A stretch of DNA of 60,805 bases, the filler included, from Globobulimina sp. (Eukaryota), in NCBI GenBank assembly GCA_003354225.1. It is 8 parts of 8 records of this genome, joined end to end, with 100 filler letters (N's around TTAATTAATTAA, not from the genome) between each part and the next. Parts side by side here need not be neighbours in the genome. Positions count along the whole stretch, not along the records: positions 30,495 to 38,011 come from PIVH01000148.1; 7 more parts are not named here. One strand, given 5' to 3'. The notes beneath the pieces were generated by a model. That model ran no database searches. It worked only from the letters and a program-made list of their open reading frames with translations, and was not told where the DNA came from. Of the stretch, positions 18,601-56,936 are shown one piece after another. A program made the translations under genes and the position numbers. The first letter of the stretch is position 1; each line of letters opens with the position of its first letter.

Positions 18601-21155
18601 TATGGCGTCACTCCGTTTGTAAAGATTGTAAAGAACATTTTTGTAATGATTGTTTAGTTGAATATCGTGGCAAAAGATGTGAAGATTGTGTCAATAACAA
18701 AGAAGTAAATGAGATGGCTGATATTATACATAATGCATTAAGGTCAATATATATGTTTGAGGTTTTTTTTGTGCCGAATGATAAAATATATTTGATTGCC
18801 AACACAATCGCAAGTTATGGGGTTGGTTATATTGTTAAATGTGGCAATTCCAAGACATGTCCAAGCAATGTTATTATTTTTGATAACAACTCGCAAATGT
18901 ATGCTAAAAAAGATTATAACAACTCACAAATTTACTATTATGAAGGACAATATTTTGATGAAAATAGAACATCCGCATTAATAAATAATCGTCGATTACG
19001 CATATTTTGTAATTATTGTACCACGCATTTAGTCCGCCAATGTTGTGTACCATTCTGTAACAGAAAAGATTCAGTTGCTGTCTGCGCACTGCATCCAGTG
19101 TGTCATAAATGTGCGAGTGGTGTGTCGGAAAAAAACGATGAACTTAAATGTTGTCGTCGTTGTAGGAAATCATTTTGTGCAGATTGTTGCATTACGTCCA
19201 TTGACTATATGAGAATGAGAGTCATGTGCTATTATTGTGAGTCATGTGCGGTTGAAATGGAAAAAAATGAAATAATTGATGTGTTGTTGAATGTATTAAA
19301 AAATGTTGTTGATGAATATATTATTGGTGTTGTAACAGATTATTGCATTGGTTATGTGTTTAAATGTGGTAATAATTATGACCAATGCGAGAATGATATA
19401 ATATTTGACAACAGATTTAAATTTAAAAAGGAACATGATAGGAATGACGAAAAAATATATTATTATTCAATTAACTCCAAACATGTAACAGGAAATAAGC
19501 AAACAGTCAACGATCCAACAGAGAAGAATCATAAATTGCGAATATTTTGTTCAAAATGTACAGGTATTCGGCTGTCAGTCTGTCTGAAGAATGCTCAATG
19601 TATCCATAAAGAATGTGGAATGTATCCAATATGTGACAATCATCCAAAATGTAAATCATGTCATAGTAATAGTCGGTATGCATTGTCAAAATGTAATATA
19701 TGTCTCGATTTTTTTTGTAGACACTGCAGATATGAGAATTCATCAACGTGTAAATCATGTGTTACAAAGCAAGAAATCAATGAATTGCGTAATATCATAT
19801 GTGAGGCATTGAAAACATTAAAATATATGCTTGAGAGTTATAATATATCGTTGCTTATTGCTGAATATTGCGTTGGTTTCGTATTTAAATGTGGTAATTT
19901 AAAGGATAACTGTGATACAAAGATAATATTTGATAATAAATTTCAATTTCATTCACGTAAAGACTGTGAGAATCGCGCAATAAACTATTATGAAGTTGAA
20001 TATTTAGCAGCCAACAGACCAACCATTTGTTTGCCAGATAATACTAAAAGACGGTTTCGAATATTTTGTAATGAGTGCTCATCAAATAAGATGGTGCGAT
20101 GTCCTGATTGTTGGCGAAGAGTGGATGTTTTACCGATATGTGGGCGACATCCAATTTGTAGTAACTGTGATAAAAAAGTGTTGCGTTCGGGAATAATAAA
20201 TTGTTGTATCTGCTTTGAATCTTATTGTGAAAGTTGTTGTTATTCGCTTGGCTATGACGAGAATGTTATTTATTGCAAAGTTTGTCTGAAGAACGTTGGT
20301 TATGAGGAGTTATACGGCGCCATTTATGCAATAATACGTAGATTAGGTTTAGGTTTTGATATAAATATTATTGGCATTATGATGGATTATTGCATGGGAT
20401 TTGCCTTTGAATGCGGTAATGTCGAAAGAAAGTGTGAAAATGATATTATTTTTGAAAATATGTTTCAATTTGGAAAAAAACACGATTTTACTATGCAAAA
20501 AGTATATTATTATCAAGTGAAATATGCGCGACATAATAAAGCAACAATATCAATGGATAATAAATTGTATAGAATATTTTGTGTAAACTGTACGAAGAGA
20601 ATTAAAAAATGTCGCGGATGTTATCAAAATAAAGAATCGGGTGAGATATCAGAATGTTGTGATCATCCAATATGTTCAAAATGTAATCAAATTATGTTTG
20701 CTTCGGAGACAAAATGTAAGAGTTGTTTCAAATATTTCTGTTATCCGCAATGTTGTATTGATATTGTTGGAAGATGTTATTGTATGCAATGTGCCATAAA
20801 TAAAGAATTTAACGATTTAATTGAATGTATAGCAAATTCGCAGTTAATATTAAAGGTAAATATGGATAGTGAAATTATAACTGTTTTGGCAGAGTATAGT
20901 GTCGGACTTATATTTCAATGTTGTAATAATATTCAGAAATGTAAGAAGAAAATCATTATTGATAATATTTGGCAATTTAAAAAGAAAATAAATTATGAAA
21001 ATAAAACAATAAAATATCGATATTTATCAAACATAGTTAAACGAAAAAGAAATAAAAGAGTAAAATTAATGAATAATAAACGATTAGTAATTTTATGTAA
21101 TGGTTGTTGTTTGGAATATAGATATATTAATAAACGCGGTGCATTGATTCGGTAA
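15666..21155 (+). CDS. Giant protein (about 1800 aa) with three SAM-like domains and about 8 Cys-rich repeats
   Basis: Exon 15666-15995 joins in frame to 16053 through GTTAAG..ACAG intron 15996-16052. SAM-like segments lie at about 16730-17280. RIFCxxC-containing units of about 170 aa run from about 17280 to the end. Confidence 0.8.
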
Positions 21156-21456: not shown

Positions 21457-22548
21457 ATGGCATCATTGGAAATTATATTAACACAATATGGTTTGGATGA
21501 CATTGGAAATAAGCTGCAAAGTGCTAGAATATCCATTGACACATTGAAATGGATGGATATAACAAAAGATTTCGATGAATTTGTGGAGGAATTGAGTTTA
21601 AATATAATTCAAAAAATTAAATTACGTGCAGTTATTAATGAATTGCAATCAAAACATACTTTGTTTTTCAATGAAAAGTATAAGAAAATAAATCGAATTT
21701 CAATTGGTTTGGAGAATGAAATAAATGTAAAATTCCAAGAAATTATCAGTAAATTACAAAACAGACAGAATCAACTTTTGCTTGACATTCAACAATGGAA
21801 ATTACAACAAATTAAAAACAATAATCAAGATTCAACACTGTATGAACCAAATATTGATGTTTCATCAGCTATTAATTTACATGAAATATCATCATTTATC
21901 AACATTCAATTTACAAATAACAATAAAAATGACTTTGATAAGGAAGAGAGCAAAGAATTTAATTCATTTTCAAAAATACAAACTAGAGTCCAATTGAACC
22001 CCTTTTGTGCTGATTATGTTGAAATAAAACAGATAGATTTGGAGTACTTTGACCATCGTAAACATTTTATAAATGATGACACGGATAATACGAATCAATA
22101 TCATCCAAAGAATTTATTAGATTTATATTCCAATGATAAATATTACAGCGATAAAATATGTAATTTTCAAATGGATAAAAATAATAAAATTGAGAATGAT
22201 TGGATTATATTTAAAATATTATATGAAAAGCAATATTTTATTCCAACGATATGTGAAATAAAAAACCATTCAAATGAATATGCAGTAAAAATATTATGTT
22301 TATACATTGGAAATGAGAAAGGTGTTTGGCTTCAATTAAATAAAAATAATGTTATTTTATCAAATAATAACATATTTTCGCAAAAAATAAATTTGAATTT
22401 GATGGATAATATCAATAAACAATTAATTATTGATAAAAATTTAAACTGTTTTAAAGTTGAATTAATTGAAAACTATGGCGCTAATTCTGTGGATAAATCA
22501 AAATTCTGTTTGCATTATCTTGCATTGCACGGAAAAACAATAAAATAA
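21457..22548 (+). CDS. SAM-like + coiled-coil + C-terminal discoidin/galactose-binding-like beta-sandwich protein
   Basis: N-terminal SAM-like LTQYGLDDIGNKL..LSLNIIQKIKLRAVI; C-terminal HPKNLL..NDWIIF..FKVELIENYG..LALHG. Confidence 0.6.
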   Translation: MASLEIILTQYGLDDIGNKLQSARISIDTLKWMDITKDFDEFVEELSLNIIQKIKLRAVINELQSKHTLFFNEKYKKINRISIGLENEINVKFQEIISKLQNRQNQLLLDIQQWKLQQIKNNNQDSTLYEPNIDVSSAINLHEISSFINIQFTNNNKNDFDKEESKEFNSFSKIQTRVQLNPFCADYVEIKQIDLEYFDHRKHFINDDTDNTNQYHPKNLLDLYSNDKYYSDKICNFQMDKNNKIENDWIIFKILYEKQYFIPTICEIKNHSNEYAVKILCLYIGNEKGVWLQLNKNNVILSNNNIFSQKINLNLMDNINKQLIIDKNLNCFKVELIENYGANSVDKSKFCLHYLALHGKTIK

Positions 22549-26246: not shown

Positions 26247-28538
26247 TTATTCTTTTGTGGTGGACGGGACTCCCCAGGTACAATCTCGTTCGATTCCTAA
26301 ATTATCCGAATACATCTTTATTCGAAAGAAACCTTCTTCTCCCTATATATCATTCATATTATAATTAACCCACAAAAATATAAACACACTCATACCCAAT
26401 AAGTACCCCATGAATTCCTGACAACCCAATATTCCTCATCCGCAGCAGTAATGCCCCAGCCAATTACAGAAATTTCATGATTTAGTAGTGGAAATACCTT
26501 CCTTTCACTGAATACACCGCCCGTATATTCATCCAATTGCGGCGTTGCATCAATACCGCACGAAATATGCCCACGAGCATATATCTCTTTTTTCATATTA
26601 TCAGCACCATTGACAGCACCATATTCCGTCACCCAATATAATTGAAATGTAGTTTGTGGAAAACAAGTTCCCGGCCAAAAATTCGACGACGAATTTCCAG
26701 AAACACAATTTTCACAAATATTCAAATTTGTATTGTTGCCATGAGGATCATCTTTTGCTTGATATTGTTGACAGGTTTCATCAGCGATACCATTCTCTTT
26801 CACATATCTCATAACATGAACTGCTGCGCCGCCATAACAGGTCCCTCCACCATGCTCATTGATCAATATTTGTGGAGCCAAATTAATCTCAGGCCAAATA
26901 TTACCATTTGCTTTGCTTGTATTACTGTAACCTCTTTGTATCGACAATCTATCTGATAACATACTCGTTGTTGCGAATGCCCAACAACTTCCACAATCTA
27001 ATAAACAAATTCAATCAAATATATATGCTTAATGGCAACAATATATTTCTACGTCATGTACTTAACATTGTGGAATATGTTGATTCCGCACCAATGTCGC
27101 ATAGTTAACTCCCTATAATATTTTGATTGTTAGCAATGTATGTTCAGTGTTTGACATACGTGGAATGGGTTGTTTTCGTATCTAAACGTTACGGAAATAA
27201 CTCATGCCACATATGCAGCATTGGTGGACATAATTAACATTAATATCATTCCAAACCCATTTATCAGGCAAATCCTCAGTCTTTATGTAATTTTGAGGCA
27301 ATGGATTCACAATGTAAGCACCACCATATTTGCTCCAATCATTCTTTGGTGGTCTACCTGGAAACTGCATATATTTCATTTTCTGCACATTAACATTAAC
27401 ATTTGAAGTATTTTGCCAATATGGAGCATCCTCAGGATTCGCATAAACACAATGTTGCTCAATACCCAACATATCGACACCACGAACAATTCGGAAATAG
27501 CCCTAGATATAAAAAATAATTCGAAAGTCAATATACAGCATAATACGAATACAAAACAAACGTGATATCCCCAGTAAGTGCCCCATGAATTGCGACCAAT
27601 CCAATACTTTTCACCTTGTTCACTTTCACCATATCCAACCAGTGAGACAACATGATCAGTAATGGTAAAATTGATTGGCGCGGAATAAATCTCAAACGAT
27701 GACAAATTCTGAAAACCAGCAGCATGCGAATAGATGGAACATGCAATGGGCCCATCCTGTAAAGCTTGTATCATTGGCGTCTCCCTATTACAATAACCAT
27801 GTTCTTTAATTTTCCATATTTGATGAGGAAATTGGGCAAAACAACTTGTATCATTGTCGCCGACTGGGCAATTCTTACAACGCGCTTCGTCATTGCAAAT
27901 ATTGCCGGTGTCGTGTCCGGTGGCTTGATATGGTGCACATGTTTCAGACGTTATTCCGTGTTCTAAAATATATTGATATGCCATGTTGGTATCGCCACCG
28001 CGACATCCATCGTTTTGTAGATCACAATCTAATAATACTTGCGGTGACAAATTCCTTTTTGGTTGTTGAGTGTTTATATGTTTGTGTATCGACAATGAGT
28101 TACGTACCATTCAGGAAACGCATTTTTCTGTTGGATCATTATTCTGTCGGATAATGCCGATGTAGTTGCCATTGCTGCATTGAATAAATATTTTGATTGC
28201 AATTCAATATAAAATAAATATAGTTATTACATACCCCAACATGCACCACAGTAATTGGGAATATCTGTATATTAGAAATTAGAGTTTTAAGTTTAATTAT
28301 TGTTGTTGACTTAACGTTGATTTCGCGTCCACGTTGTGTATCGTTGTTGATCTCGCCATCTCCAATCTATTTCAGTTGGTAATGCTGATAAATCACTATA
28401 TTTATTTTCCGGTCTATTCGCATCATCTAAGAAAAAATCCACTGGATTATCATTTGGATAATAACATGGTATGTGTGGATCAAAGCAAAATACACATTTG
28501 CTCGATGCTAACAGTAATATGGCTAAAGAGTTCATCAT
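26247..28538 (-). CDS. Tandem double-domain cathepsin Z/X-like C1A cysteine protease, multi-exon
   Basis: Signal peptide. Domain 1: TRNQ/IPNYCGACW (30-nt micro-exon 28235-28264), DHVVSLVGYG, GRNSWG. Domain 2: RNQHIPQ/CGSCW, NHEISVIGWG, VRNSWG. The last exon ends CTWGVPSTTKE with stop at 26247-26249. Confidence 0.88.
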
Positions 28539-30494: not shown

Positions 30495-33400
30495 TTGTTT
30501 AATAATACATTTTACCCTACTTGGAGATGGTTTTAACTTATAATCTATATTATATTTATTACAACAATTTATAGCGTGTTTTATCCAAGATTTTTTTCCT
30601 GGATTGTTGTAATATGTTATTAATTGTTCGTTAATAGCTAGTTTCACTAAATTATTATTTGTTAATGTTAATAAATGGATCAGATAGTTAATTGTTCTTT
30701 TATCTGCTTCCATTTGCATTGGCATGATGTCAGTTTCTCCATATAATACCGCTCTATGGGTATGTCTGGGAAGTTTAGCAATCATCCTAATGAATTCTCT
30801 TTGATGAACTTCAATTTTCTTAAAAGTGTTATTTGAATATTCTATAGCAGAAATACCATGTAACACTTTAGGTTGTACGTAAGTAGTCCATATTTTGGTG
30901 CCATATACGGCTTGTCGTGCTGTAGCTGATGCAGGTTGAAAGCATTTATATACTTCCTTCCTTGTTTTACCAGCTAATTCTCTTCTATGTTTTGATAGTA
31001 TATCTGCTCCTGATTTTGCAATAGTTATACCTAGATATTTAGCTTCACCTTCTTCTTTGATATTTATTGTTTTAGTCTCAGTTTCAGATATGTACATAGT
31101 TCCTAATTTCCATAATCTATCATTAATTACTTTTCTTCTTAAAGGAATAATCAAGCTTTTTGGCCCTGAAAATTCAATTTTCCATCTTTGCGCATAATTT
31201 CCTACTATTTTTAATAATTTAGTCATATTATATTCCGAAGAAGCAAATAATAACATATCATCCGCAAAAAATATGCCTGATATTATTTTTGAGCATTCAT
31301 CGGAACCTATTTCAATCCCTAAATCACTATTTTCTATTTCCCGTCCTAGGTCTGCTATATATAGCGCCCATAGACTGGGGGACATAGTGCATCCTTGTCG
31401 TAATCCGACTTCCATATCTAATGGTTCTGTTAATTGATCCTGGAACGATATTATTGCTTGAGGATTATGGTAGCTACTTTCAATAGCTCTTACTAATTTA
31501 TCTGGAAATCCATAATCTCTTAATTTTTTCCATAAACCTTTTCGCCATACTCTATCATAAGCTTTGCATATGTCAAGTAATGCTAAGGTACTATTTCTAG
31601 ATTTCGGTAATCTTTTTGCTTTTAAAACTGTATGTTGTATAACTAAAATACAGTCTTCAATTCTCTTATTGGCTCTAAAACCATGTTGAATATTACCTAA
31701 TATATTCTTTTCTTCAGTGATTTTTTCTAATCTTTTTGTAAGAATTGTTAGATACACTTTACATAAATTACATCCTAAACATAAGGTTCTGTAATTTGAT
31801 ATTTTACTTTTTGATCCTTTCTTATGTAATAATGTTACTTCTTGTACTTTTCCAATATCTGGATAGTACCCTGTATTATACCATCTATTGAATAGTAGTA
31901 ATACATTATCTTTCATTTCAGTTGGCCAATTTTTAATAAATTCTGGAGGAATATTAGTGGTTCCTGCAGAAGTGCCATTTTTTAATCTTGATATAGCTTC
32001 ATTTAACTCTTTCATCGTTAGATCTCTTTCTATATCGATTCGATCATTTCCTTTAATTATACCATCTAATCCTACTCTTTTCATTTCGTCATTAGCTTCA
32101 GGCCAAATTCCTAATGTAAAAATATCGTTCCAAAAATTTGATAAATGATTATTAATTTTTTCGGTTCCATTTATTGGTTCATTATTGTTGTCCAAAAGTG
32201 TAACCGGTTCTTTTACTCCTCTTTTTAAATGTTTCATCGTGTCATATAATTGATGAAATCTCCTTCTTGGATTAGCTAACCATTTATTATGCGCTTTTTC
32301 GACTCTAGCCATTTCAGTTTTTTGTCTTAATTCTCTTTGATCTTTTATTAATTCAAATAATTCTTTTAATAAAGCTTTCGAATCTCCATTATTATGTCTG
32401 AGATTCTTTCTTATATCAGTAATTTTGTTTTTTAATTTTTTTGCTCTATTTGATAGTCTTGCCTTTTTATTGGGTTTCTTCTTATACCCTATTGTTTGCT
32501 CGGCTGCAGTTGTCATATGATTTAATATTACATTTTCATCAAGTTCTTCCTCTTTAATTGTAGCTAATTGAATTAATTTGTCCCTATAAGGTTTCCAATT
32601 TAAGTCATCAGTTATATTCCATCTCTTTTTGTTATTATTAATATTTTGATTTGTAGATTTATTTATTTTATTTTGATATATATCAAATTCCGCAAATATG
32701 AAACAGTGATCAGCATTTCCTGTTCCTAATTGGGTATTTGTTTCATCAATATACATAGATTTTATTTTACTATAGGGAGAATTTAAAACCAAATCAAGTA
32801 CCTGAGGTTTTGTATTTTGTTTGTGAAAACCCCAGGTCCATAATCCTTTAGTTTTATTTGAGTCATTTGTTAATGTAAGATTTGAGTTATTTATAAACTC
32901 TCTAATTAGATATCCATTGTCATTTATTTCAATATGATTACCTTTAATGCCATGGATGTCATTTCCTATATGTCCATTAAAATCTCCCACCATAACAATT
33001 TCATAATTTTGTCTCATACACCATTTTATGTGGTTAATTAGTCTGAGACTTAATTCAAAATTAAATGAATGGGTAGTATTATCTCTATTACTTTGATTCT
33101 TGAAATATACAGTACAGATTGCCACTGGGCCTACATTTTGGCATAGTACCCATAAATAGTGGTTGCTTATGTCGTCATTAAAACCATCTATATCTAATTT
33201 AGTTGGTTTAATCTTATTATGACCCCATATGCTAATTCCGCCTGTTTTAGTACCAGTTTGCATCTTATGAAATCCTACATATTCATCGAAATCATGAATG
33301 TCTAACACAGTTTTTAATCTGGTTTCAACAAAACACAACACAGAAGGTTTTAATTTATTAATATTATCATCAATCAGATCAAATTTATTTTTAATAGAAC

Positions 33401-33524
33401 AGATATTATTATACAGTATTGATATATGTTTGAAATCTTTAGATTTTTCATCATTTTGAACATCATCATCTTTTGTTTCATTATCTTTACTATGTTGATC
33501 ATCATCATCATCTTGGCGTTCCAT
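30495..33524 (-). CDS. LINE ORF2: apurinic endonuclease + reverse transcriptase (frame open from 33623), 3' partial
   Basis: APE motifs ILYNN, VET, GDFNGH, LDL and ADH; RT motifs NYRTL, QHGFR, DICKAYDRV, GLRQGC.MSP, FADD and YLG. Confidence 0.95.
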
Positions 33525-33613
33525 TTTTGTTACATAAGGTGTAGAATAATTAATATTATTAATATTATTTACTAAGTTATTATTAATGTATGTTTGGGAT
33601 TTGCCGTCCCTTT

Positions 33614-36600
33614 TTAGTTTTCCTTAGGATCCAATTGTAACGATTTATTCGAAATTCCAAATGTCCATGTTAATAAAGCTTCTCTTACTATTTCAACAGC
33701 TAATACTTTCTTACCATTTTTGGTTAAGTGTATGCCATATAGAAATACTTTTAATATATCTTCTGATGAAGACATGGTTTTTACTTTCTGCAGCTGTCTT
33801 GCAGCTTGCATTATTGCATAAGTTAATTGTATATATCTAATAGGTAATACATTTTCTACTGCATATGAATGCACTTTTTGTGCCATATATCTTTCGATTT
33901 CTAATGATAAATTCATATGTCCCGGATCGTCAATATTGCGCAAATATTCAGATTGTCCACCTCCTTGGATAGGTTGGGTGAAATTTAATAATATAGCACA
34001 ATTTGGATTTTTCTTACTAATATCATGACATATTTCAAAAGCCGTATGTAATATTTTATCGGCATATTTAATACTCCTTTCTTTAATTTGTTTTGGAGTG
34101 ATATTGTCATTAGTCATATCGGATTTCCAGCCATGTATTATGTCGCTGTAATCCATAACATATTTTAATACTATGACTTTTTCGTCACCTTTAATAAGAG
34201 TTTCTACTATCGTATGGGTTTGTCGTAACCGTAGACTTACTGCACCTTTTCCTATAGATTTTACTCCACCATATATTGGTAATCTTCGTAAAAATGTTTC
34301 ACTAAATACTTCTGTAATAGGGTCTTCTAGACCTACAGAGGTAGAGTCACCGATCATGAATATTTTCAGATACGGAAATCTTAATTTTTGGATATTAATG
34401 GATGACTGGAAAGATTCAAAGATTCTTTCTTTTAATTCATTTAATGCTAATCCACTAATAGTACCTCTTTCTCCTTCACTGCCATAAATTCTTAGGCATT
34501 CCGGAGCCCATCCATCCTTTTCATTTCCTAAATCATGATCAGTGTATGGTTTTAATACGTTAGCTTCAAGATTATTAGCTGGTATATATTTCTTTTGATA
34601 AATGATCGTGGTCATAATCGCTCTTATAGCTTCTCGATCTTCTTCTAATTTTGTTTTTCTTTCCTCTATTAATTTCTCCTGTTTACTCTTTTTACTAATA
34701 GTAGAATGTGTCGAAGATGCAGCGCTTTTGACTGAATTCGATCTTGATCTTTGTTCTCCATATGTTGGATCATATTCGTCATTACTGGTTAATTTAGGGG
34801 TTCTTCTTCTTGATGGTCTTGGTTTACTTGATGAGGCATCATAGGAACTTGGGAAATCTGGTGAGATGCTTTTTGCAGATATTCCAGATTCTGATGCCAT
34901 TGATATTACTGATGCCGATCTTGATGATTTAGCTGATGATGTTCTTGGTCTTTTACCACTACTAATTGTTGATATTCCTTGTTCAAGGTCTTTCATATTT
35001 ATATCTCTTGATGAGTCCGTTACTGCTGACCATCCATAATCCGAAATATGAATCGTAGATGTATCATCAAAGCTTTGTGCTGCTGTTAATTTGTCTTCTT
35101 TACTTTTTAATTTTGCTAATTTTTCTTTGACCTTTTTATTTGCATCAGCTAATTTTTGTTTAATCCAAGGAAGATTCGTAATATTGAATTTGGGATTATT
35201 CCTCATATCAAAATGATAAAATCTTGTTTCTCTTAATTTATCAAAATTTCCTTTTGCTAATGGTTGTTTTGATGTGCAATTGCAAATATTTAATTCTAAT
35301 TGTGTTTTAATTTCCTTTTCATTATCTAAATGTTTAATTGTCCAGAGTTGACGTAATTCTTCGAATTCTTTGTCAATTCCTTGTCTTACTATTTTAGGAG
35401 ATTCAGTATATTTGGAAATAAATTGAGAGCAAAAGTTTCCTATTACATTACCAATTAAATTTCCTTCGTAATTTTCTCCTTCTAATTTGTCAATAAATAT
35501 ATTTTTATTTCGGGCATTATATCCGATGCCCAATTCTTTATTTGTTGATAAAAACAAGAATGTCACATCTTCATAATGTCCAATTTTTCCTAATAATGTT
35601 GCGAATTTTTGATCATATTCGATTCTAATTCGTAACCAGTCATTAAATTTTGTTGATTTATACGCTGCATTAATTTCTTCTGAATAATCTTGATAATTTT
35701 TAATAGGAAGATCTTCTAATAGTGATGTATAGATTTCATAAGTCATCCGTTGAGTTAATTTCCATACTAAATCCCAGTCTTTACATGTGATGGCCATTTG
35801 TACTTTTAAGTAATGGTCAAAACATGTATAAGTAACACTACCTTCGTAGTCCCAGGGAAGGGTATCATCTTCATCAATTTTAGATTCAAAAGGGAATACA
35901 CCTTCTGTTAATGATTCATAACCCCATGAAAATGGGTCATTTTTCGTACCTCCTACTAAAAATTCGTTATGTAGTCTTAATGGTTTTTCTTGAATTAGTA
36001 CATTATCTTCAGATCTCTCTTCTGTTGTAGAAGTTGCCGTCGGATATTGTATTGATAAATTTTTTACTAATATTTCTAATTCATTAATACGTCGTTCATA
36101 ATCGTCATTAGTATTATTTGATATTCCCAAATCTCTATTGACTCCTTTTTGGATTTCTTCATCTAATAGAGATTTGTATCCTAATAACTCGTTTGATATT
36201 ATTCTTAATTGATTTTGTAAATTAGTTACTCTTGAATCATCTATTTTACATTCATGATCAGAAGAATCTTGTAAATGTTTTTTTAGATTCTCTTTCGTAG
36301 ATATATTATGAGCTTGTGCTTTACTAGCCATACGCAAATTATTAGTTATGAAAACCGAATTTACTGAAGCAAATTTGGTCAAATTAACCAAGGATTGCAT
36401 AGAAGAGTGGCACGTGGCCGTTAATTTAATACTAATTTCGTAAAACATTTTATGAATTGTCATTAAAGCATTATAAATTTCTGTACCTTTTGGTACATTA
36501 TTTTCACTTTCTAATATTAATTTCATAATCTCACTATGTTCTTGTAACATTTGAGACATGTTTTCTCTAGTTGCATGTGTATTTAATATTAATTCAGATA

Positions 36601-37951
36601 ATTGAAGTCCTGATTGTTCAATAAAGGAATGTCTATCTTTAGCGATACCTTTATTGTTATCACTGACAAACGTATCCTTTAATAAATTTTCATTTTGAGC
36701 AGAGAATTTATAGGTTCTGTTACTCGAAACAGTAATATTTTTATTTTCTGTTAATGTTACTGCTTCATCAATTAATTTTTTGTATTCATCTTCTCTTGGA
36801 GATAAATTAGATGGAACCATAGTTAATCTATCGTCTTCTTGTTGACCTAGTCCCATAGGCGTTGTGCCTTGATTAGGGATTTCGGTCGAAGTACTAATAT
36901 TACTATTATTCAAATTGTCGTTTGGGTCCTGCATATTACCTGAAACAAAAACATTATTAGATGCAGAATTATTCATAGCTAAATCTAATTCATCACATTT
37001 AATCATATCTTTCACACGATCAGCTTCTTGTAAATTTTTCACAATTACTGACGTCGTTCGTTTTTTATTTAGTGATGAATGAGTATTTTCGTACTTTTTA
37101 TACATATTACGAACTTTTTGTTCAGATTTACTATAATATACGGTACTCAATTTCTTATTTCTATGTGGAGTATTACTCATAATAAAATAATAATAAAAAA
37201 ATTTAATAAAATTTAATTTACTTACTAATTTTGATTTCTTAATATTTGGAAATCTTCTTTTACTTGATATTCTTTTATTAAAGCCAGATTCGGAAAACAA
37301 AAAATAAGGCACGATGATTTCACCCGTATTCAATAAATCACCCGTATAATCGCTTTGTTTTCTTCGAGAATGACGAGAAACACGAAAACTTTTTTTGAAG
37401 TGGTGTGTACCGTATCGTCGCTCAGCGTTCGGGTTACTGTATAAATATTTGGTTTTTGGTTTAATGTCAACGTTTTTACTAAGGACGTTACTAACACGAG
37501 CTCCAATTGGTGCACCATTTTCATACAAACAGTGCCCATTTGATTTCGTCGTCGTTTTTGTCCTAATATTCTTTGATAAATATCTCAAAAATTTTGAAAT
37601 TTTTCCCATTTTTTTTTGATTTAAAGTACTTAAATTACTATATTTAACATCTTTGTCATAGGAATTAATAAAATTCTTGATATTCGTAGTGGGAGCTATT
37701 TTTTTGTGTCCCTCCTTACTTTTTTCATGTTGTATTTTGAGCTCCGAAGGAATACATTTTGATGGCTCAGTGCGAACTATTTCTGAGTTTTCATGTAAAC
37801 TGCGCCCATCTGTTCCAGTATTATTAATCGATATATTAATTGAAATATTTTTAGCCTTTAAATTACTAGGTATTTTAATGATTATACTTTCATCCATGTC
37901 TGAAGGTAAGCTATTTGAGATTTTTTCACTTATAGCTTTTGGCCCAACCAA
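33614..37951 (-). CDS. LINE ORF1 (1445 aa or more): coiled coil, NADAR-like domain (about 35420-35965), Ser-rich linker, SGNH-like domain (about 33650-34370)
   Basis: NADAR-like DPFSWGY..TYTCFDHYLKVQMA..ELGIG..GNLIGNVI; SGNH-like IFMIGDS..YGIHLTKNGKKVLA. Confidence 0.85.
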   Translation of the reverse strand: MVGPKAISEKISNSLPSDMDESIIIKIPSNLKAKNISINISINNTGTDGRSLHENSEIVRTEPSKCIPSELKIQHEKSKEGHKKIAPTTNIKNFINSYDKDVKYSNLSTLNQKKMGKISKFLRYLSKNIRTKTTTKSNGHCLYENGAPIGARVSNVLSKNVDIKPKTKYLYSNPNAERRYGTHHFKKSFRVSRHSRRKQSDYTGDLLNTGEIIVPYFLFSESGFNKRISSKRRFPNIKKSKLVSKLNFIKFFYYYFIMSNTPHRNKKLSTVYYSKSEQKVRNMYKKYENTHSSLNKKRTTSVIVKNLQEADRVKDMIKCDELDLAMNNSASNNVFVSGNMQDPNDNLNNSNISTSTEIPNQGTTPMGLGQQEDDRLTMVPSNLSPREDEYKKLIDEAVTLTENKNITVSSNRTYKFSAQNENLLKDTFVSDNNKGIAKDRHSFIEQSGLQLSELILNTHATRENMSQMLQEHSEIMKLILESENNVPKGTEIYNALMTIHKMFYEISIKLTATCHSSMQSLVNLTKFASVNSVFITNNLRMASKAQAHNISTKENLKKHLQDSSDHECKIDDSRVTNLQNQLRIISNELLGYKSLLDEEIQKGVNRDLGISNNTNDDYERRINELEILVKNLSIQYPTATSTTEERSEDNVLIQEKPLRLHNEFLVGGTKNDPFSWGYESLTEGVFPFESKIDEDDTLPWDYEGSVTYTCFDHYLKVQMAITCKDWDLVWKLTQRMTYEIYTSLLEDLPIKNYQDYSEEINAAYKSTKFNDWLRIRIEYDQKFATLLGKIGHYEDVTFLFLSTNKELGIGYNARNKNIFIDKLEGENYEGNLIGNVIGNFCSQFISKYTESPKIVRQGIDKEFEELRQLWTIKHLDNEKEIKTQLELNICNCTSKQPLAKGNFDKLRETRFYHFDMRNNPKFNITNLPWIKQKLADANKKVKEKLAKLKSKEDKLTAAQSFDDTSTIHISDYGWSAVTDSSRDINMKDLEQGISTISSGKRPRTSSAKSSRSASVISMASESGISAKSISPDFPSSYDASSSKPRPSRRRTPKLTSNDEYDPTYGEQRSRSNSVKSAASSTHSTISKKSKQEKLIEERKTKLEEDREAIRAIMTTIIYQKKYIPANNLEANVLKPYTDHDLGNEKDGWAPECLRIYGSEGERGTISGLALNELKERIFESFQSSINIQKLRFPYLKIFMIGDSTSVGLEDPITEVFSETFLRRLPIYGGVKSIGKGAVSLRLRQTHTIVETLIKGDEKVIVLKYVMDYSDIIHGWKSDMTNDNITPKQIKERSIKYADKILHTAFEICHDISKKNPNCAILLNFTQPIQGGGQSEYLRNIDDPGHMNLSLEIERYMAQKVHSYAVENVLPIRYIQLTYAIMQAARQLQKVKTMSSSEDILKVFLYGIHLTKNGKKVLAVEIVREALLTWTFGISNKSLQLDPKEN

Positions 37952-38011
37952 ATTTTGGGTAGGATCCGTATTCCCTGTATTATTTAGGGTTGGTAATGGT
38001 CGAGCTACTGG

Positions 38012-45746: not shown

Positions 45747-48700
45747 ATGATATATCTGGAGCGTCAAATTAATAAATCTGAAGTGCTGCCTTTTAGACAA
45801 GACCAAATGTTACACAAACCAGAAAACGTAAAAACCTACAGTAATATTAGAGGAGTAAATACGGTAGAAATCAATACTTTGGTCCGTGTATACCTTCAAA
45901 AATTAAAAGGCAAAATAGAAAGTTCTGGAAAGAAAGGAGAATTTTGGGCTGACGACGGACACAAACAGCACGAAAAAAGGAAAAATCCACAAAAATTGCA
46001 AAGAAAACAGGAATCAAAAGAGCGAATAGGAAGAAGCGAAGCAGTAAGTATATTAATTTTTTTAAATTCCAAATTTATATGTTGTCAAAATCATCAATAT
46101 ATGCGTGTATGTAAGATGAGTAAATCTGAGACGAAAAATAAATTAGGCAATAATAGAAATGATAGATATTCAAGTAGATCAAGTAGTAGAAAAGGATATT
46201 CGTCCGTACGAAAAACGACGGTAAAAACTAAGTCAAAATTAATATTAAAATTTGAAAATGCCGAAAAAGTCAAGACGGAAAACGGTACTCTATCCGTTTC
46301 CAGTCAAGACTCAAAAGCTAACATAGGTTATATAAAAACGATGAGAAAATCATTAAAAAGGCAACGATATGCAGATAATAAAACTATTAAAAATGTAGTA
46401 GAAAATTTATTAGACAACGTTGAGGATAAGTTAAATTCTTCCGAAGGAGATGTAGGGAATAACGTAGAACTTATAGAAGAAATAATAAATATAACTCCAA
46501 TAGGAGCGCGTCCGTATCAAAGTACACCGAATACAATCTCAAGTATATTAATAGGTAGTCGTACAGTAGATCATAATTCGTTAGGTATTAGAGACCTTAT
46601 ACCGAATACGGTATGGACACCGTATATAGTAGATTATAATGCAGATAAATCAAATCAGAATATAAACTGTACGCCGAATACGGTAAGTACATCGAATATG
46701 GTAGATTATAATGTAGATACATTAAATCAGAATATAAATGTTACGACGAATATGATAGACAATATAAACCGTACGTCAAAAATAGTATGTACACCGAATA
46801 AGGTACGTACGCTGAATACGGTAGATGATAATAATCTAAGTCAAATTGACGTGACGGTAGATAATATGTCATATGTATTAAATAATATTAGTGATACATC
46901 ACATATATATGACGATATATTAGAATTGCCATGCACACCAGATAATACTATTATACAGATTGAAGCAGATACACCAAGAAAAGGACCACAGAGACAAATA
47001 AGAATGTATCATTTAGTAATTAATAAATTAGCGGCAATAGAAATTGAATTGAAGTTGAAGCCAGAAACAGAAATAGACAAAGTTACAGATCAAATCATTA
47101 GAGACACACTAATAGAAATAGATGCAATATATAGAAATGTAGAATTATTTGATATAGAAAATAGTATAATACTGTGTAAACAAATAAATAATAAACTAAA
47201 TAAGTTAGACGACATAATATACGGTATATTAGAGAAAATAGGAGTTAAAACTAAAAATCATATATGTGATGAATTAGGTAACATGAATCTTTCATTTTGT
47301 GAACTTAAAAATTTAAATATTTCAGGTATGGATAAGGAGAAAGATCCAAATTTGGAGACAACAACATCAAGCGGTACGGCAGCTGTCGGAGACCCAGAAC
47401 TTACTGAGGCGACCAATAGCATGTCGACCGCGGCAATTACTACAGAATCACAGAAAAATGTAGATAAAAATGTAGAAAATTTAACCACAGACAATACTAC
47501 AGAATCAGAAATGACAGATGAAACGGCGACAGAAGACACAAATAATTTTGATAAATCTGCGTCAATTAGAGCTATACCAGAAAATCCACATATGTACCCA
47601 GACTTTCTGGAGAGATACGTATATCCAACGAGCTTAACAGAATTCTTAGATGATATAAATACAGGTAAAGATTATATTTATGAAACTGATGAGGGAAAGA
47701 AATATAGAATGAAAAATAACACCCCTCCTATAGATATATTAGATATGTCAGTTAAAGATAAAGAATTGAATGATCTTAGAGCCCACTTTATAACCCAAGT
47801 AGCTTGGCTAATGGGATATGAAAGTGAAGAAGGTAGAATTCATATCAATAATAATACTGCAATCATAAGGAAAATTAGAACTTTTATTGATGAATGCTGT
47901 GAGAAATCTACATTACCAGTACAGGGGACTCACATGGCAGCCATCTTAAAAACAATAGAAGACCATCAAATATTATCCATGAGCAAATCTATGGACACAG
48001 ACGAAACTTTGTTGAAAACTATCAAAGAATTAACACAAATGATATTAAGAAATAATGAATCAGTTTTTACAATAAATAAAGCAATTAGAACTACGATATC
48101 AAATCAGAAAAAAGTTGAAAATAATATTAAGGCTGTGTCAACTTCAGTAAGTGTAGAACATAGTGAACAGAAAAAGAAAAACGACGTATTTACGTTAAAT
48201 TTCACAAAAATGTCTAAACAACTTGAACAATTAAATTTAGACAATATCAAATACAAGAAAGAAAATGTGGAATTAAAAGCGGAAGTAGAAAAAAATAAAT
48301 CGGAATTGGGTAAGATAAAGGTGCTGATCGGTCAGTTAAGCGGAACCTCCATCCAGCAACAACGACCTGTATCTGCACCAACAACACCCTCGGTACATAC
48401 AAAGAATATTGAAGATTTAAAAATTGAAATAGAAAAAAATAGAACTGAAATGGGTAATATAAGGATGATGATCGGTCAGTTAAGTGGAGTCCAACAACAA
48501 CGACCTGAACCCACACCTATAATACCTCCTGTTGAAGAAATGCCACAATTAAGAGACAAAAAAGATATTTTAATTGGAGGATGTAAAGGATGTCCTTTCA
48601 ACTTCGATTATTTAACAGAAATTAGAATTGTAACTAAAATGACAGAAGATGCTAAAGATGAATTTGTATCATATCATAGCTTTAACCACTATATTATGAT

Positions 48701-51011
48701 GCAAATGGCTATTGCTTGTTTAGACAAACAATTAATTAGACGATTAGCAGTTATAAAAAATAAATTATATTTCGAATATATACTGCAAAGATGTCCTATA
48801 GAAAAATATCAAGAAAATAAAGACCAATTTACAGCCCAATGGATAGCTGAACATTATAAACAATTCATATTATGTATAATGAGGAGAAATTTAGCCATGA
48901 GTGCTTTATGTGGTAAAATTGGCGCTGAAGAACTAACCCCAAAATTTTTAATCTCTGATAAAAATTTGGGTATTGGTTATGACGCTAATACAGAAAATAT
49001 ATATTTAAATCAATTAGAAATAAATTCAGCTGGCTCAAATTTACTAGGCAAAATTGTACATGATTTATGTGCAGATTCAAAAGATAATTATTTAAAATTA
49101 GACAAAAATAATAAAGATCAAACAGATATAGAATTTAAGCAATATTGTGAATATTGGAGTATTATGGATACTAAAGATAATGAAATAATAAGTAATGCTA
49201 GATTAGCAGCAATCAGAAATAATATATGGATTAAAAGCGTTACGTTAGTAGGCGATTACGACAATATAAGAAAAGAAAGATTATCGTTCGCAGATAAACA
49301 ATTTGAACCAAATATGAAATTAATAGAAGCTCCTTGGATAACAAAAATATCAAGATCGGAATTGAAAGAAGTCCAAAAAGGGGTTAGAAAGAAATATAGA
49401 GAAAATTCAAATGAATATAAAAAAGAATTAGAAATACAATTGCAACTGTTACGAAAAGAAAAAATCGAACATGATGCAATTAAATTATCAGAATCAGATA
49501 CAAGTAGTACGGATTTATTTAATCCAATGTCAGTAATATTAGGTAAAAGTTCTGCAACAGATTTAGATCCTGATATAGAAATATTAGATAAAGTAGATGA
49601 TGATAATTCAGGACAAAATTTAGATTTAGATAGAAATGTTCTAAGTGCAGCTTCATCTGCAAGTTATGATGGAGAGGATGTATTTAGAAAACCAGAGCCA
49701 TGGGAATTTCAGAGAAAATCACGAGGTCTAAGAAGAGGTGGGAGATATCCTAGAGGAAACGATAGGATCTCGCCTCCTTTTCGACCACCTCCACAAGATC
49801 AAGATGATAGAAGATCAACATCACGAGATAGATATGATTCAGAAAAACCTGCTTATTCCTTTGTAAATAGAGGTGGACATCAAGTACAATGGTCTGCAGC
49901 AAAAATTTTTGGTTTATCCAAACGAAAGACATATGGATCACAAGATAGTATAACCTCAGATGAACATAAATTTCAGAAAATTATGAGTGCAACAGAAAAA
50001 TTAGATATAGCTAAAGGCAGATGCAGAAAAATTCCATATAAAAGAGAGTTCAATGAAGACTTTCAATATCATAACAAAACATTCTTAGATATAACAGCAT
50101 TTTATATAGATAAAGATGTACACGGTGATAAATGCAAAAATATAGACGGAGCAGATATAAAAGGGATACCTATAATCCCTTTACCATTAGAAATTATGGC
50201 AGATAGAAAAGGTATTAATAAATTTGGACCTAGATATGATACAAGAATAACATATAAAATGCCAGGTAATTTGCAATTATCAATAATAGGAGATTCAACA
50301 ACATATGGATTAGAATATGTTCTAGATCTTACAGCAAAAGAATCTGAAGTAAAACCCAATGTACATTATTTAGGCATGAAATCATCAGGAAGTGCCTTAT
50401 TAAGTTGTAGAGTCAGACAAATGGCACCCGTTATCCCTGCATTAACAATGGGAGACGAGGATGTCATTGTGATAAAAGGCATATTAGATTTAGCAGATAT
50501 TGTACATACATATTATGGTGCAGGTAAAGTCCAAGATTCTTGGAAACCTTTTGTAGATGAAATGGCAGCAGATATATCTAGAATTACACACAATATACAT
50601 GGTATACATAACAATGTATTAATGCTGATTAATTTTACAACACCAATATTATCAAATAAAAATTATATGACAGATAATAATGATCCTGGATTTTTGATAT
50701 TAATCCAGGAAATAGAAAATTATTTAGCAGATAGAGTAAATGAATTATCAAGACAATTTAAAATTCCAGTTAGATATATTATGCTTGCTTCAGCAATTAT
50801 AGAACAAACCTATAAATTAAAAAAAGAAGCTGAAAAGGAAGCACAAGAACTAATTTCAATAGAAGATTCCTTAGGTAAATTTGTATCAGGTATTAAATTG
50901 ACAAGAAATGGAAACAAGATTTTGGCCAATGAAATATTTAGAGAAATGGTCACTGGTTGGACCTCTTTTGTTGATGCGAAGATTTTATCCGGAAAGAAGT
51001 CGGAAAACTAG
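45747..51011 (+). CDS. LINE ORF1 (1754 aa): repeats, coiled coil, NADAR-like domain (about 48560-49080), SGNH-like domain (about 50270-50960)
   Basis: NADAR-like CPFNFDY..SYHSFNHYIMMQMA..DKNLGIG..GSNLLGKIVHDL; SGNH-like SIIGDST..SGIKLTRNGNKILANEI. Confidence 0.85.
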   Translation: MIYLERQINKSEVLPFRQDQMLHKPENVKTYSNIRGVNTVEINTLVRVYLQKLKGKIESSGKKGEFWADDGHKQHEKRKNPQKLQRKQESKERIGRSEAVSILIFLNSKFICCQNHQYMRVCKMSKSETKNKLGNNRNDRYSSRSSSRKGYSSVRKTTVKTKSKLILKFENAEKVKTENGTLSVSSQDSKANIGYIKTMRKSLKRQRYADNKTIKNVVENLLDNVEDKLNSSEGDVGNNVELIEEIINITPIGARPYQSTPNTISSILIGSRTVDHNSLGIRDLIPNTVWTPYIVDYNADKSNQNINCTPNTVSTSNMVDYNVDTLNQNINVTTNMIDNINRTSKIVCTPNKVRTLNTVDDNNLSQIDVTVDNMSYVLNNISDTSHIYDDILELPCTPDNTIIQIEADTPRKGPQRQIRMYHLVINKLAAIEIELKLKPETEIDKVTDQIIRDTLIEIDAIYRNVELFDIENSIILCKQINNKLNKLDDIIYGILEKIGVKTKNHICDELGNMNLSFCELKNLNISGMDKEKDPNLETTTSSGTAAVGDPELTEATNSMSTAAITTESQKNVDKNVENLTTDNTTESEMTDETATEDTNNFDKSASIRAIPENPHMYPDFLERYVYPTSLTEFLDDINTGKDYIYETDEGKKYRMKNNTPPIDILDMSVKDKELNDLRAHFITQVAWLMGYESEEGRIHINNNTAIIRKIRTFIDECCEKSTLPVQGTHMAAILKTIEDHQILSMSKSMDTDETLLKTIKELTQMILRNNESVFTINKAIRTTISNQKKVENNIKAVSTSVSVEHSEQKKKNDVFTLNFTKMSKQLEQLNLDNIKYKKENVELKAEVEKNKSELGKIKVLIGQLSGTSIQQQRPVSAPTTPSVHTKNIEDLKIEIEKNRTEMGNIRMMIGQLSGVQQQRPEPTPIIPPVEEMPQLRDKKDILIGGCKGCPFNFDYLTEIRIVTKMTEDAKDEFVSYHSFNHYIMMQMAIACLDKQLIRRLAVIKNKLYFEYILQRCPIEKYQENKDQFTAQWIAEHYKQFILCIMRRNLAMSALCGKIGAEELTPKFLISDKNLGIGYDANTENIYLNQLEINSAGSNLLGKIVHDLCADSKDNYLKLDKNNKDQTDIEFKQYCEYWSIMDTKDNEIISNARLAAIRNNIWIKSVTLVGDYDNIRKERLSFADKQFEPNMKLIEAPWITKISRSELKEVQKGVRKKYRENSNEYKKELEIQLQLLRKEKIEHDAIKLSESDTSSTDLFNPMSVILGKSSATDLDPDIEILDKVDDDNSGQNLDLDRNVLSAASSASYDGEDVFRKPEPWEFQRKSRGLRRGGRYPRGNDRISPPFRPPPQDQDDRRSTSRDRYDSEKPAYSFVNRGGHQVQWSAAKIFGLSKRKTYGSQDSITSDEHKFQKIMSATEKLDIAKGRCRKIPYKREFNEDFQYHNKTFLDITAFYIDKDVHGDKCKNIDGADIKGIPIIPLPLEIMADRKGINKFGPRYDTRITYKMPGNLQLSIIGDSTTYGLEYVLDLTAKESEVKPNVHYLGMKSSGSALLSCRVRQMAPVIPALTMGDEDVIVIKGILDLADIVHTYYGAGKVQDSWKPFVDEMAADISRITHNIHGIHNNVLMLINFTTPILSNKNYMTDNNDPGFLILIQEIENYLADRVNELSRQFKIPVRYIMLASAIIEQTYKLKKEAEKEAQELISIEDSLGKFVSGIKLTRNGNKILANEIFREMVTGWTSFVDAKILSGKKSEN
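46527..46860 (+). repeat. Degenerate coding repeats (about 72-75 bp unit) in ORF1
   Basis: ccgaata starts at 46527, 46602, 46674 and 46794; PNTV..VDYN..NQNIN peptide units. Confidence 0.75.
48260..48540 (+). repeat. About 144-bp internal duplication in ORF1 coiled coil
   Basis: EKNKSELGKIKVLIGQLSG..QQQRP vs EKNRTEMGNIRMMIGQLSG.QQQRP. Confidence 0.8.
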
Positions 51012-53215
51012 ATAAGGTCAGTACAATAACTAGTTTTCACAATAATCGAAACATTAATAATACTCATATTTCAGATGCTCAGAATATAAACAAACCACAA
51101 AGATGGTTCAAAGAAAAAAGATCCAAAGATAAGAAATTATATTTGGATCAAAATATTGATATATTATATAATAATGTATTATCTATGAATTCTAAAATAG
51201 ATATTATAAATGAACATTTAAAAGAAATAAATATAGATATTATATGTTGTGTTGAAACAAGATACAAAAACATACTAGACACACATAAAATACAGGGATA
51301 TGATAGTTTCCACAAAATGCAACCTGATTGCAAAACAGGAGGTATTAGTGTATGGGCAAAAGTAGATTCTAAATCTACTAGATTAGATATCGATGATATA
51401 GACGACGAAATTGCGACAAATTATTTATGGATATTATGTCAAAATAGAAATATGACTGCTATATGTACTGTATATTTAAGAAACCAAGGAGATAAAAAGG
51501 CTATGGATACAAATACTAAAATATGTCAAAGACTAGCACAGCATATTAACTGGTGCAAAATTAGGAATTATAATATTATAATAATAGGTGATTTCAATGG
51601 ACATATCGGAAACGATGATTTAGGAATTAGTAATAATCATGAAGCAATAAATAGTAATGGCCATATTGTACGTAATTTTATTAAAAATACAAATATGATA
51701 TTGGCAAATAACGATAAAGAAACCTCAGGTACATGGACTTGGGGATATCGTAGAAAGAACACTAAACCTCAAATACTAGACTTAATATTAAGGAGCGAAA
51801 AAGTCATAAATTTCGACACTATTATAGACGAAGAAAATATTAGATATGGAAATGGAAATAAAGACCATTGTTTTATATATGGAAAATTTAGAGTAAAATT
51901 TAAACCTCTAGATGAAACCATTAAAAGTAAAAAACAAAGATGGAATATTAAAGATGACACAGATTGGATCCCTTTTAAAGAGAATATTAAAATAAACTTA
52001 GAAAATAGACAAAAACTAAACGATATTGATGAGACTGAAATAATAGATATTATAGGAAAATCGGGAGAAGATACAATAGGATATAAAAGTGATAAAATAA
52101 AAAAACCTAGAGAATCAAAACAAATCCAACAAATTTCTCTGGAGATTAGAAATATTAGAAAGAAATTACGCCATAAATTAGAATTTAAAGGGAATTTAAT
52201 TAATGAATTATTTATGAAAATAAGAGAAAAAAAACAAATAATAATGAGGGCAGAAATGGCTAGAATAGAAAAAGCACATGATAAATGGATTAAAAACCCT
52301 AAAAGAAAATTTCATCAATTATACGATACTATGAAAACTCTAAAACGAGGAGTAGTAGAAAAAGTTACATTGATAGATGAAGATAAGAATCCAATTATAG
52401 GTGAAGAGAAGATTAAAACTCATATAGCAGAATTTTGGACTGATATATTTACTCTAGGTATATGGCCTGAGGCCAATGATAATATGAAAAGATTAGGACT
52501 CAGTAATATTATCAATGGTGCAGATAAATTAGATTTAGAAAATGAAATAACAACTAAAGAATTAAAAGAAGCAATCAATAAATTAAAAAATAATACATCA
52601 TCCGGTTCAACGAATTTACCACCAGAATTTCTCAAAAATTGGCCAATAGAAATGATAGAAACAGTAAAAGTATTATTTAATAAATGGTATGATACAAGCT
52701 ATTTTCCAGATATAGGTAAAACCCAAGAAGTGACATTATTACACAAAAAAGGTTCAAAAAGTAAAATTAAAAATTACAGAACCCTAAGTTTAGGATGTAA
52801 TCTCTGTAAATTATATTTACATATATTAACGAAGAGATTGGAGTCAATTACAGAAAAGAAAAATATATTAGGATATATCCAACATGGATTTAGAGCAAAT
52901 AAGAGAATTGAAGATTGTATATTGGTTATTCAACATACAATACAAAGAGCTAGAAAATTAAGAGCATCAGAATCTCCAACTATAGCATTATTAGATATAT
53001 GTAAAGCATATGATAGAGTTTGGAGAGAAGGATTATGGAAAAAATTAAGAGAATATGGCTTTCCAGATAAATTAGTAGATGCAATCAAGAGTAGCTACCA
53101 AAATCCAGGAGCTACTATAACATTCCAAGGTATAAAAACTGACAGACTAAAAATGCCAGTAGGATTAAGACAAGGTTGTACAATGTCTCCAACCTTATGG
53201 GCATTATATATATCA
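51002..53215 (+). CDS. LINE ORF2 (APE + RT), no ATG upstream of the endonuclease, 3' partial
   Basis: Frame open from 50975; ILYNN, VETR, GDFNGH, KDH, DICKAYDRV and GLRQGCTMSP. Confidence 0.92.
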
Positions 53216-56842: not shown

Positions 56843-56889
56843 GGCGACTAATTTGTCATGTAATGGCAAAATGTAGTGGGAGATGATGG

Positions 56890-56897
56890 TATATATA
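56890..56897. promoter_or_regulatory. Palindromic TATA element between divergent Bcl-2 and integrase genes
   Basis: TATATATA roughly midway between ATGs at 56842(-) and 56937(+). Confidence 0.55.
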
Positions 56898-56936
56898 GCT
56901 GAATTGAAGCAACATGACATAAGTGAAACTGTCAAA

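Follow-up and report, generated by a model that had tools for sequence, protein, structure and literature searches.

A NADAR-fold module in the first open reading frame of non-LTR retrotransposons from Globobulimina sp., with apparently altered active-site residues

LINEs (long interspersed nuclear elements) are very common genome parasites, and their first open reading frame (ORF1) is the part of them that is least understood; ORF1 proteins of the esterase type are not known to have an RNA-binding domain or any further accessory one. This article describes a domain in ORF1 of one such element, a non-long terminal repeat (non-LTR) retrotransposon of the kind that carries an APE-type endonuclease and a reverse transcriptase (RT), in DNA from the Globobulimina sp. 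assembly GCA_003354225.1. The window, that is, the whole stretch of DNA analysed, is 60,805 bases long and is made up of eight contigs of about 7.5 kb each, ordered by decreasing length and separated by spacers of N; the region studied lies on the minus strand of the fifth of these pieces (30495-38011). This region appears to encode a YbiA-type NADAR-fold domain, followed by a family-specific four-helix extension, within ORF1 of the retrotransposon. On balance, the domain is best regarded as a conserved, non-catalytic module of ORF1 that would serve as a scaffold or binding unit. Kept across deeply diverged elements beside a C-terminal domain marked by a Gly-Asp-Ser (GDS) block, it would represent a new ORF1 building block, and one that links retrotransposons with the NAD/ADP-ribose conflict toolkit of phages and RNA viruses.

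Conservation and fold of the ORF1 domain

The core of the domain occupies residues 663-844 of the piece-5 ORF1 protein (35420..35965, minus strand), and its partner occupies residues 935-1116 of the ORF1 protein of a second element, located on piece 7 of the window (48549..49094, plus strand). The strings quoted in an earlier note on this DNA (DPFSWGY, VTYTCFDHYLKVQMAITCKD, PIKNYQ, LLGKIG, NKELGIGYNA, and GNLIGNVI) are all found in the piece-5 ORF1 translation, and the block-by-block correspondence with piece 7 that it described is borne out by pairwise alignment, in which GG, PF, HY, QMAI.C.D, PI..YQ, GKIG, LGIGY.A, and NL.G are invariant columns. When the two domains are compared alone by BLASTP, they align with 94.7 bits (E 9.2e-30, 31% identity over 180 amino acids), against a mean of 13.4 bits and a maximum of 21.2 bits for 200 shuffles of the piece-5 domain searched against piece 7. 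Comparison of the whole ORF1 proteins produces a single alignment that runs from residue 653 in piece 5 and residue 929 in piece 7 to the two C-termini (27% identity over 866 columns, E 1e-67). Ahead of these residues there is no alignment, the best BLASTP E-value between the N-terminal halves being 3.0, in agreement with the dissimilarity of these halves previously remarked upon.

The order of parts in ORF1 would be a variable N-terminal part, a helix-rich stretch that, judging from its sequence, is probably a coiled-coil, the NADAR fold with its extension, a basic Ser/Arg-rich linker, and a putatively SGNH-like GDS domain at the C-terminus. As delimited by structure comparison (AlphaFold2 model and VIA-align), the NADAR/YbiA fold is assigned to ORF1 residues 659-850, equivalent to model residues 11-202 (35402..35977, minus strand). 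The helical extension that follows it (residues 851-935; 35147..35401, minus strand) is modelled as four confident helices (model residues 205-286) forming one unit with the fold and is recognizable in piece 7 (BLASTP E 1e-6). Two residues of the extension region, W222 and Y200, are invariant in seven of the seven sequences now in hand, and no structural match among 48,161 PDB representatives covers the extension. The linker (residues 936-1139; 34535..35146, minus strand) is unconserved (BLASTP E 0.65 against the piece-7 linker) and Ser/Thr-rich (26% S+T, 18% K+R); both linkers are basic, with isoelectric points (pI) of 9.6 in piece 5 and 8.9 in piece 7, and the domain itself has a pI of 4.7 (acidic) in piece 5 and of 7.0 (neutral) in piece 7. 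The C-terminal domain (residues 1140-1445; 33617..34534, minus strand), which carries an invariant GDS block in alignment A6 and is probably SGNH/GDSL-like, is again conserved, with a BLASTP E-value of 6.6e-42 against piece 7.

The model assigns the domain clearly to the NADAR/YbiA fold, a link that is clear by structure and weak by sequence. At the sequence level, the Pfam NADAR family (PF08719) matches the piece-7 domain at E 9.9e-4 with 19.8 bits, under the gathering cut-off of 35.1, and gives no match in piece 5; across the family, it is detected at E <= 1 in one of seven members and is absent from the other six. Profile searches of PDB sequences with two- and seven-sequence profiles reached no NADAR, the only match being a saposin at E 0.5, and hhalign against an alignment of 30 YbiA-like sequences returned an E-value of 0.16 and a probability of 0.36. 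An AlphaFold2 model of the domain was built from the seven-sequence alignment (predicted local distance difference test score, pLDDT, 82.1; predicted template modelling score, pTM, 0.83). When this model was compared with the 48,161 PDB representatives by VIA-align, the first three ranks were all NADARs, namely the P. nicotianae NADAR 8bau_A (Z 10.3, root-mean-square deviation 3.2 Å, 161/189 residues), E. coli YbiA 2b3w (Z 8.9, 153/168 residues), and the G. lovleyi NADAR 8bat (Z 3.7), with the best unrelated chain at Z 3.6. Foldseek likewise places 8bau and 2b3w at ranks 1 and 2 of the PDB, at weak E-values of 0.41 and 0.56. In the BFVD viral library, 13 of the 20 top rows are named NADAR, from giant viruses and phages, and a single nido-like polyprotein piece appears only at rank 34 (E 0.91); the third-ranked match in the ESM Atlas, taken as a lead only, is a cluster with NADAR on 57% of its members. 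The range aligned by hhalign (query 11-214, template columns 10-184) is in broad agreement with the structural range (model 11-209, YbiA 12-168). The NADAR-like label that the earlier note had attached to the domain is therefore supported, as a statement about fold, by the VIA-align ranks and the viral library.

Relatives of the domain are very rare in public proteins. A two-domain profile run over 1.84 billion representative proteins found six proteins at E <= 0.001, five of them true relatives, comprising three fragments, one partial ORF1 of 668 amino acids, and one ORF1 of 1908 amino acids, with domain identities of 24-40%. The sixth, a Sushi-repeat protein that matched in short stretches only, was taken as spurious. 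The same profile reached no cellular NADAR among these representatives, a word-indexed protein search with the domain region yielded 929 candidates and none at E <= 0.01, and scans of viral contigs, prokaryote genome contigs, and Joint Genome Institute metagenome contigs found no relative of the domain. In all four members whose sequence extends far enough, the domain is followed downstream by one and the same C-terminal domain. The NADAR-fold module may have been gained once, by an ancestor of this LINE lineage.

Selection on the domain had been proposed from the pairwise similarity alone, and the ratio of nonsynonymous to synonymous divergence (dN/dS) is not measurable for this pair because synonymous sites are saturated, with an NG86 dS of 1.44 for the domain against 1.14 ± 0.19 for shuffled codon pairs and a maximum likelihood (ML) dS of 29 (ML values 8-36). 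Similarity at the protein level nevertheless outlasts this full saturation of silent sites, in seven sequences, which argues for long-term purifying selection on the element and supports it in kind only. Identity at first, second, and third codon positions is 0.51, 0.65, and 0.43, versus 0.28, 0.29, and 0.36 in shuffled pairs, and dN is 0.63 in the domain versus about 1.05 in the unalignable N-terminus and linker. The idea that the domain is better conserved than the rest of ORF1 holds for the N-terminal half and the linker, which its 31% identity exceeds, but not for the C-terminal domain, which it only equals (34% by BLASTP between pieces 5 and 7, 32-38% between full-length members); ORF2 is conserved far more than the ORF1 domain (56% versus 31%). 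Element-level selection would have kept the module in place as the N-terminus and linker diverged beyond recognition. Variation of the domain from copy to copy is not usable as a further guide, since the contigs over the piece-5 ORF1, which come from the one public sequencing run found to contain this DNA (probably the source sample), are the element's own only, at a depth of about 9-15 and with one difference per contig; no RNA run was found to contain it. Over the RT part of the piece-5 ORF2 (30495-33500), in contrast, such contigs are many and diverged, with a summed depth of 35-197 and as many as 21 variant contigs in a single place; either numerous diverged members of the family share the RT, or the copies are for the most part 5'-truncated.

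Active-site residues and the proposed role of the domain

According to two studies of NADAR enzymes, the superfamily as a whole conserves a Glu that opens the first core helix and, seven positions further on, a Lys, and several basic and aromatic residues hold ADP-ribose (PMC11543638; PMC11125620). A Glu of the last core strand is likewise among the residues that these studies name as essential or family-defining. The catalytic Glu corresponds to E48 in YbiA, E43 in the P. nicotianae protein, and E88 in E. coli C7, and the phosphate-coordinating Lys to K55, K50, and K95, respectively. The hhalign alignment, which is weak (E 0.16), pairs a DHY motif of the present family with EHY of YbiA, and its Glu column is occupied by D, N, A, and D in the four sequences that span it. 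By the same alignment, the Lys column is Met in all four spanning sequences, and M and L in two fragments that start there. The last core strand (model residues 149-154) reads TFLFLS, TPKFLI, TILFLN, EVLFLS, IILFLH, and DMKYVS and holds no conserved charge; hhalign places an invariant Gly at the last-strand position, and neither of these two plausible registers, that of the model and that of the weak alignment, brings a conserved charge there. The Arg/Lys-rich segment that precedes the P..W motif has no counterpart in the family, and nor do the basic residues that hold the pyrophosphate in 8BAU. The signature positions that are kept are HY, Q, the aromatic residue of P..[YW], GK, and N.[LI]G.

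From these comparisons, it can be concluded with moderate confidence that residues essential in the studied NADARs have been lost, and that canonical catalysis and canonical ADP-ribose binding would have gone with them, the loss of catalysis being deduced from a profile alignment of low confidence together with the model's strand register. The description of the domain as a conserved functional module stands insofar as the module is present in both window elements and five relatives; since the canonical NADAR residues do not seem to be kept, however, "functional" probably does not mean a working NADAR enzyme. The module would instead act within the ORF1 particle as a folded scaffold or as a protein- or ligand-binding unit, rather than as an ADP-ribose glycohydrolase, because the residues for catalysis and for binding the phosphates of ADP-ribose seem to have been replaced. 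An inactive domain, which is what these residues suggest, would mean that an enzyme fold had been reused as a structural part of a transposon particle.

Several points weigh against a non-catalytic module. With HY, Q, P..[YW], GK, and N.[LI]G still in place, residual ligand binding or a shifted active site is possible, and a Glu-to-Ala mutant of the E. coli C7 NADAR is reported to have lost little of its in vitro activity (PMC11543638). The hhalign alignment used to map the residues lacks significance on its own (E 0.16, probability 0.36), and the mapping stems from this profile alignment and the model rather than from a residue-level superposition in three dimensions. A narrow hidden Markov model made from YbiA sequences only gave scores near zero and inconsistent local alignments, in which only the G.N.LG block recurred. 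The domain model itself derives from seven sequences, and the family is known here from sequences and models alone.

Such points lend some room to the view that the domain works as a NADAR-type glycohydrolase whose active site has been remodelled, and which would strip ADP-ribose from retrotransposon RNA, cDNA, target DNA, or proteins and so oppose host ADP-ribosylation. In favour of this view are the NADAR fold itself, the long-standing conservation of the module, and a set of polar residues that the family keeps (H65, Y66, D77, K141, Y163, E176, and N183 in the numbering of alignment A3). Every NADAR tested so far is reported to hydrolyse guanine-ADP-ribose (PMC11125620), and NADAR domains are known in nidovirus-, hepe-, and picorna-like polyproteins of invertebrates, where removal of ADP-ribose has been proposed as the function of these embedded domains (PMC9503650); by analogy, a parallel may be drawn with domains of the Macro and NADAR types that RNA-virus polyproteins carry and with phage AdfN. 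An active enzyme nonetheless seems unlikely, given a Glu column that varies between D, N, and A, a Lys column occupied by Met, a last strand with no conserved charge, the missing counterparts of the pyrophosphate-holding residues of 8BAU, and a domain pI of only 4.7-7.0. Were the domain active, this would suggest that invertebrate-like eukaryotic hosts use ADP-ribosylation to defend themselves against retrotransposition.

A broader proposal, and a slightly more doubtful one still, is that the module is a working eraser, decoy, or sensor of ADP-ribosylation whose active site has been rebuilt from other residues, the LINE having borrowed a counter-defence tool of the kind found in phages (AdfN) and invertebrate RNA viruses. 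If this were true, the RNA, cDNA, or integration site of the LINE would be shielded from host ADP-ribosyltransferases.

It is less probable again that the domain is the nucleic-acid-binding part of the ORF1 protein, standing in for the RNA-recognition motif or zinc-knuckle that is absent from esterase-type ORF1. The esterase-type ORF1 proteins of RepBase have no known RNA-binding domain (PMC3905857), modified DNA is listed among known NADAR substrates (PMC11543638), and no other globular domain was detected in ORF1. Against this stands the acidic (piece 5) or neutral (piece 7) character of the domain, and the basic Ser/Arg-rich linker is the likelier RNA binder, in line with the role proposed for arginine-rich motifs in PMC3905857.

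That the fold assignment is an artefact, with a helical domain of independent origin coming to resemble NADAR in a model from a shallow alignment, can be set aside as very improbable, for although the alignment holds only seven sequences, Pfam NADAR stays under its cut-off in the one member where it is seen and is absent from six, the PDB sequence profiles found no match, and the hhalign (0.16) and Foldseek (0.41, 0.56) E-values are weak, two NADAR chains, covering 85-91% of the target, outscore every unrelated chain by at least 5 Z units, NADARs dominate an independent viral library, the leads from Pfam and from the ESM Atlas agree on this family, and the hhalign and structural ranges broadly agree.

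The two elements and their genomic setting

The two large ORFs that carry the domain are ORF1 of two diverged APE+RT non-LTR retrotransposons, because in each case an RT, accompanied in piece 7 by an APE-type endonuclease, is encoded by the ORF directly downstream on the same strand. The piece-5 ORF1 (33614..38011, minus strand) encodes at least 1445 amino acids; the ORF at 33614..37951 translates into 1445 amino acids, and its frame continues unbroken to the contig edge at 38011, so the N-terminus may be cut. It is followed by ORF2 (30495..33524, minus strand), which encodes the RT (RVT_1, E 1.4e-28) and is cut by the contig end. In piece 7, a 1754-amino-acid ORF1 (45747..51011, plus strand) precedes an ORF2 (51143..53215, plus strand) that encodes both APE endonuclease and RT (Exo_endo_phos_2, E 3.3e-7; RVT_1, E 1.1e-18) and is also cut by the contig end. 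The two ORF2 proteins share 56% identity over 696 amino acids in an alignment that begins at the piece-5 ORF2 N-terminus, with the APE domain at the N-terminus of the piece-7 protein. Full-length ORF2 relatives in public data are 1128-1202 amino acids long and 57-64% identical, and weak zf-RVT matches (E 0.0027 and 0.032) in two of the four that were scanned are the sole hint of a clade; a zinc-binding motif at the ORF2 C-terminus is a mark of Tx1 LINEs. Two distant ORF2 relatives, P0134 and P0136 (24-27% identity), are filed in NCBI under the metagenome-assembled genome of a bacterial symbiont; these APE/RT LINE proteins are more likely misbinned host DNA.

The C-terminal domain of ORF1 is probably SGNH/GDSL-like. 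SGNH esterases are marked by a block with the catalytic Ser (GDS) and by Gly, Asn, and Asp-x-x-His blocks. In alignment A6, G-D-S is invariant in four of four sequences and a GIH motif is found in three of the four; an Asp three residues ahead of the His of this last block is absent. The domain has no Pfam match, and a PDB sequence search gave no meaningful match. Its model is of low confidence (pLDDT 48.5), and the best VIA match of that model, a GDSL esterase at Z 7.9, does not stand apart from the numerous alpha/beta folds that score Z 6-7.5; in the ESM Atlas, GDSL clusters come up as leads with scores of 0.93-0.94. At the C-terminus of the piece-7 ORF1 (50097-51008, plus strand), the last conserved block reads GIK where the other three sequences have GIH. 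If the His of GIH corresponds to the catalytic His of SGNH esterases, the piece-7 copy would be without it.

The DNA of the window has a G+C content of 28-40%, and long eukaryotic genes with few introns lie on both strands of its other pieces, including those for actin, a protein kinase, a kinesin, and a GH38 mannosidase, as well as proteases of the papain type, a member of the Bcl-2 family, and a protein resembling EGF/teneurin. Taken by themselves, these features would indicate a compact genome of a eukaryote, probably an animal. On piece 3, a 1687-amino-acid Cys-rich ORF with repeated internal modules (16092-21155, plus strand) has no Pfam match and proved unrelated to either ORF1 protein on comparison; the next ORF (21457-22548, plus strand), of 363 amino acids, is also without a match. 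Piece 4 holds a tandem pair of papain-family (Peptidase_C1) ORFs (26390-26962 and 27376-28110, minus strand). On piece 8, the Bcl-2 family ORF (56339-56935, minus strand; E 4e-16) overlaps, on the opposite strand, the start of an ORF (56883-57932, plus strand) with a retroviral-type integrase core (rve, E 5e-11), which may represent a second kind of mobile element adjoining a host gene.

Comparison with known systems

NADAR domains have been described in retroelements in one study, which reports them in the Pol protein of Ectocarpus Gypsy elements and, as divergent matches, in ORF1 of Tx1 LINEs from Crassostrea gigas (PMC12477816, Genome Biol 2025). A full-text literature search found no other report of a NADAR domain in ORF1, and nothing on DUF1768 in a transposable context. 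Compared by description, the C. gigas Tx1 elements likewise have a YbiA-type NADAR in the first ORF of an APE-type LINE, whereas the window ORF1 has in addition a GDS/SGNH-like domain at its end, and its NADAR-fold domain seems to have lost the canonical catalytic residues.

The structurally characterized YbiA-family enzymes (2B3W and 8BAU) share their fold with the window domain, which retains as remnants the HY after a strand, P..[WY], GK, and N.[LI]G at the last helix. It is, however, only 12-13% identical to these enzymes and does not seem to keep the Glu, the Lys, the last-strand Glu, or the phosphate-binding basic residues; it also adds the four-helix extension and sits within a protein of 1445 to 1900 amino acids. 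Identities of 12-14% are too low for a reliable alignment from which to build a tree with cellular, phage, and nidovirus NADARs.

In layout, the window ORF1 resembles the esterase-type ORF1 proteins known from ZfL2-1 and from CR1, RTE, RTEX, and Penelope-like elements, which combine a part made of helices or a coiled coil with a basic linker of low conservation and, at the C-terminus, a GDS domain (PMC3905857). It differs from the proteins as presented there in giving no Pfam or PDB sequence match to SGNH esterases, in the weakly supported fold of its GDS domain, and in having no Asp three residues ahead of the last-block His, which is itself a Lys in piece 7. The window ORF1 also contains an additional NADAR-fold domain, which PMC3905857 does not describe.

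A cellular counterpart to a NADAR with altered residues may be seen, again by description only, in SNA-3 of C. elegans, which processes RNA in the nucleus and has three NADAR domains, in the first of which the residues critical in YbiA are not conserved (PMC9303266); unlike the window ORF1, SNA-3 is a trans-splicing factor of the cell and not a transposon protein. What appears to be new in the Globobulimina elements is the pairing of a NADAR fold with a GDS domain, along with the helical extension and a NADAR active site that seems to have been lost.

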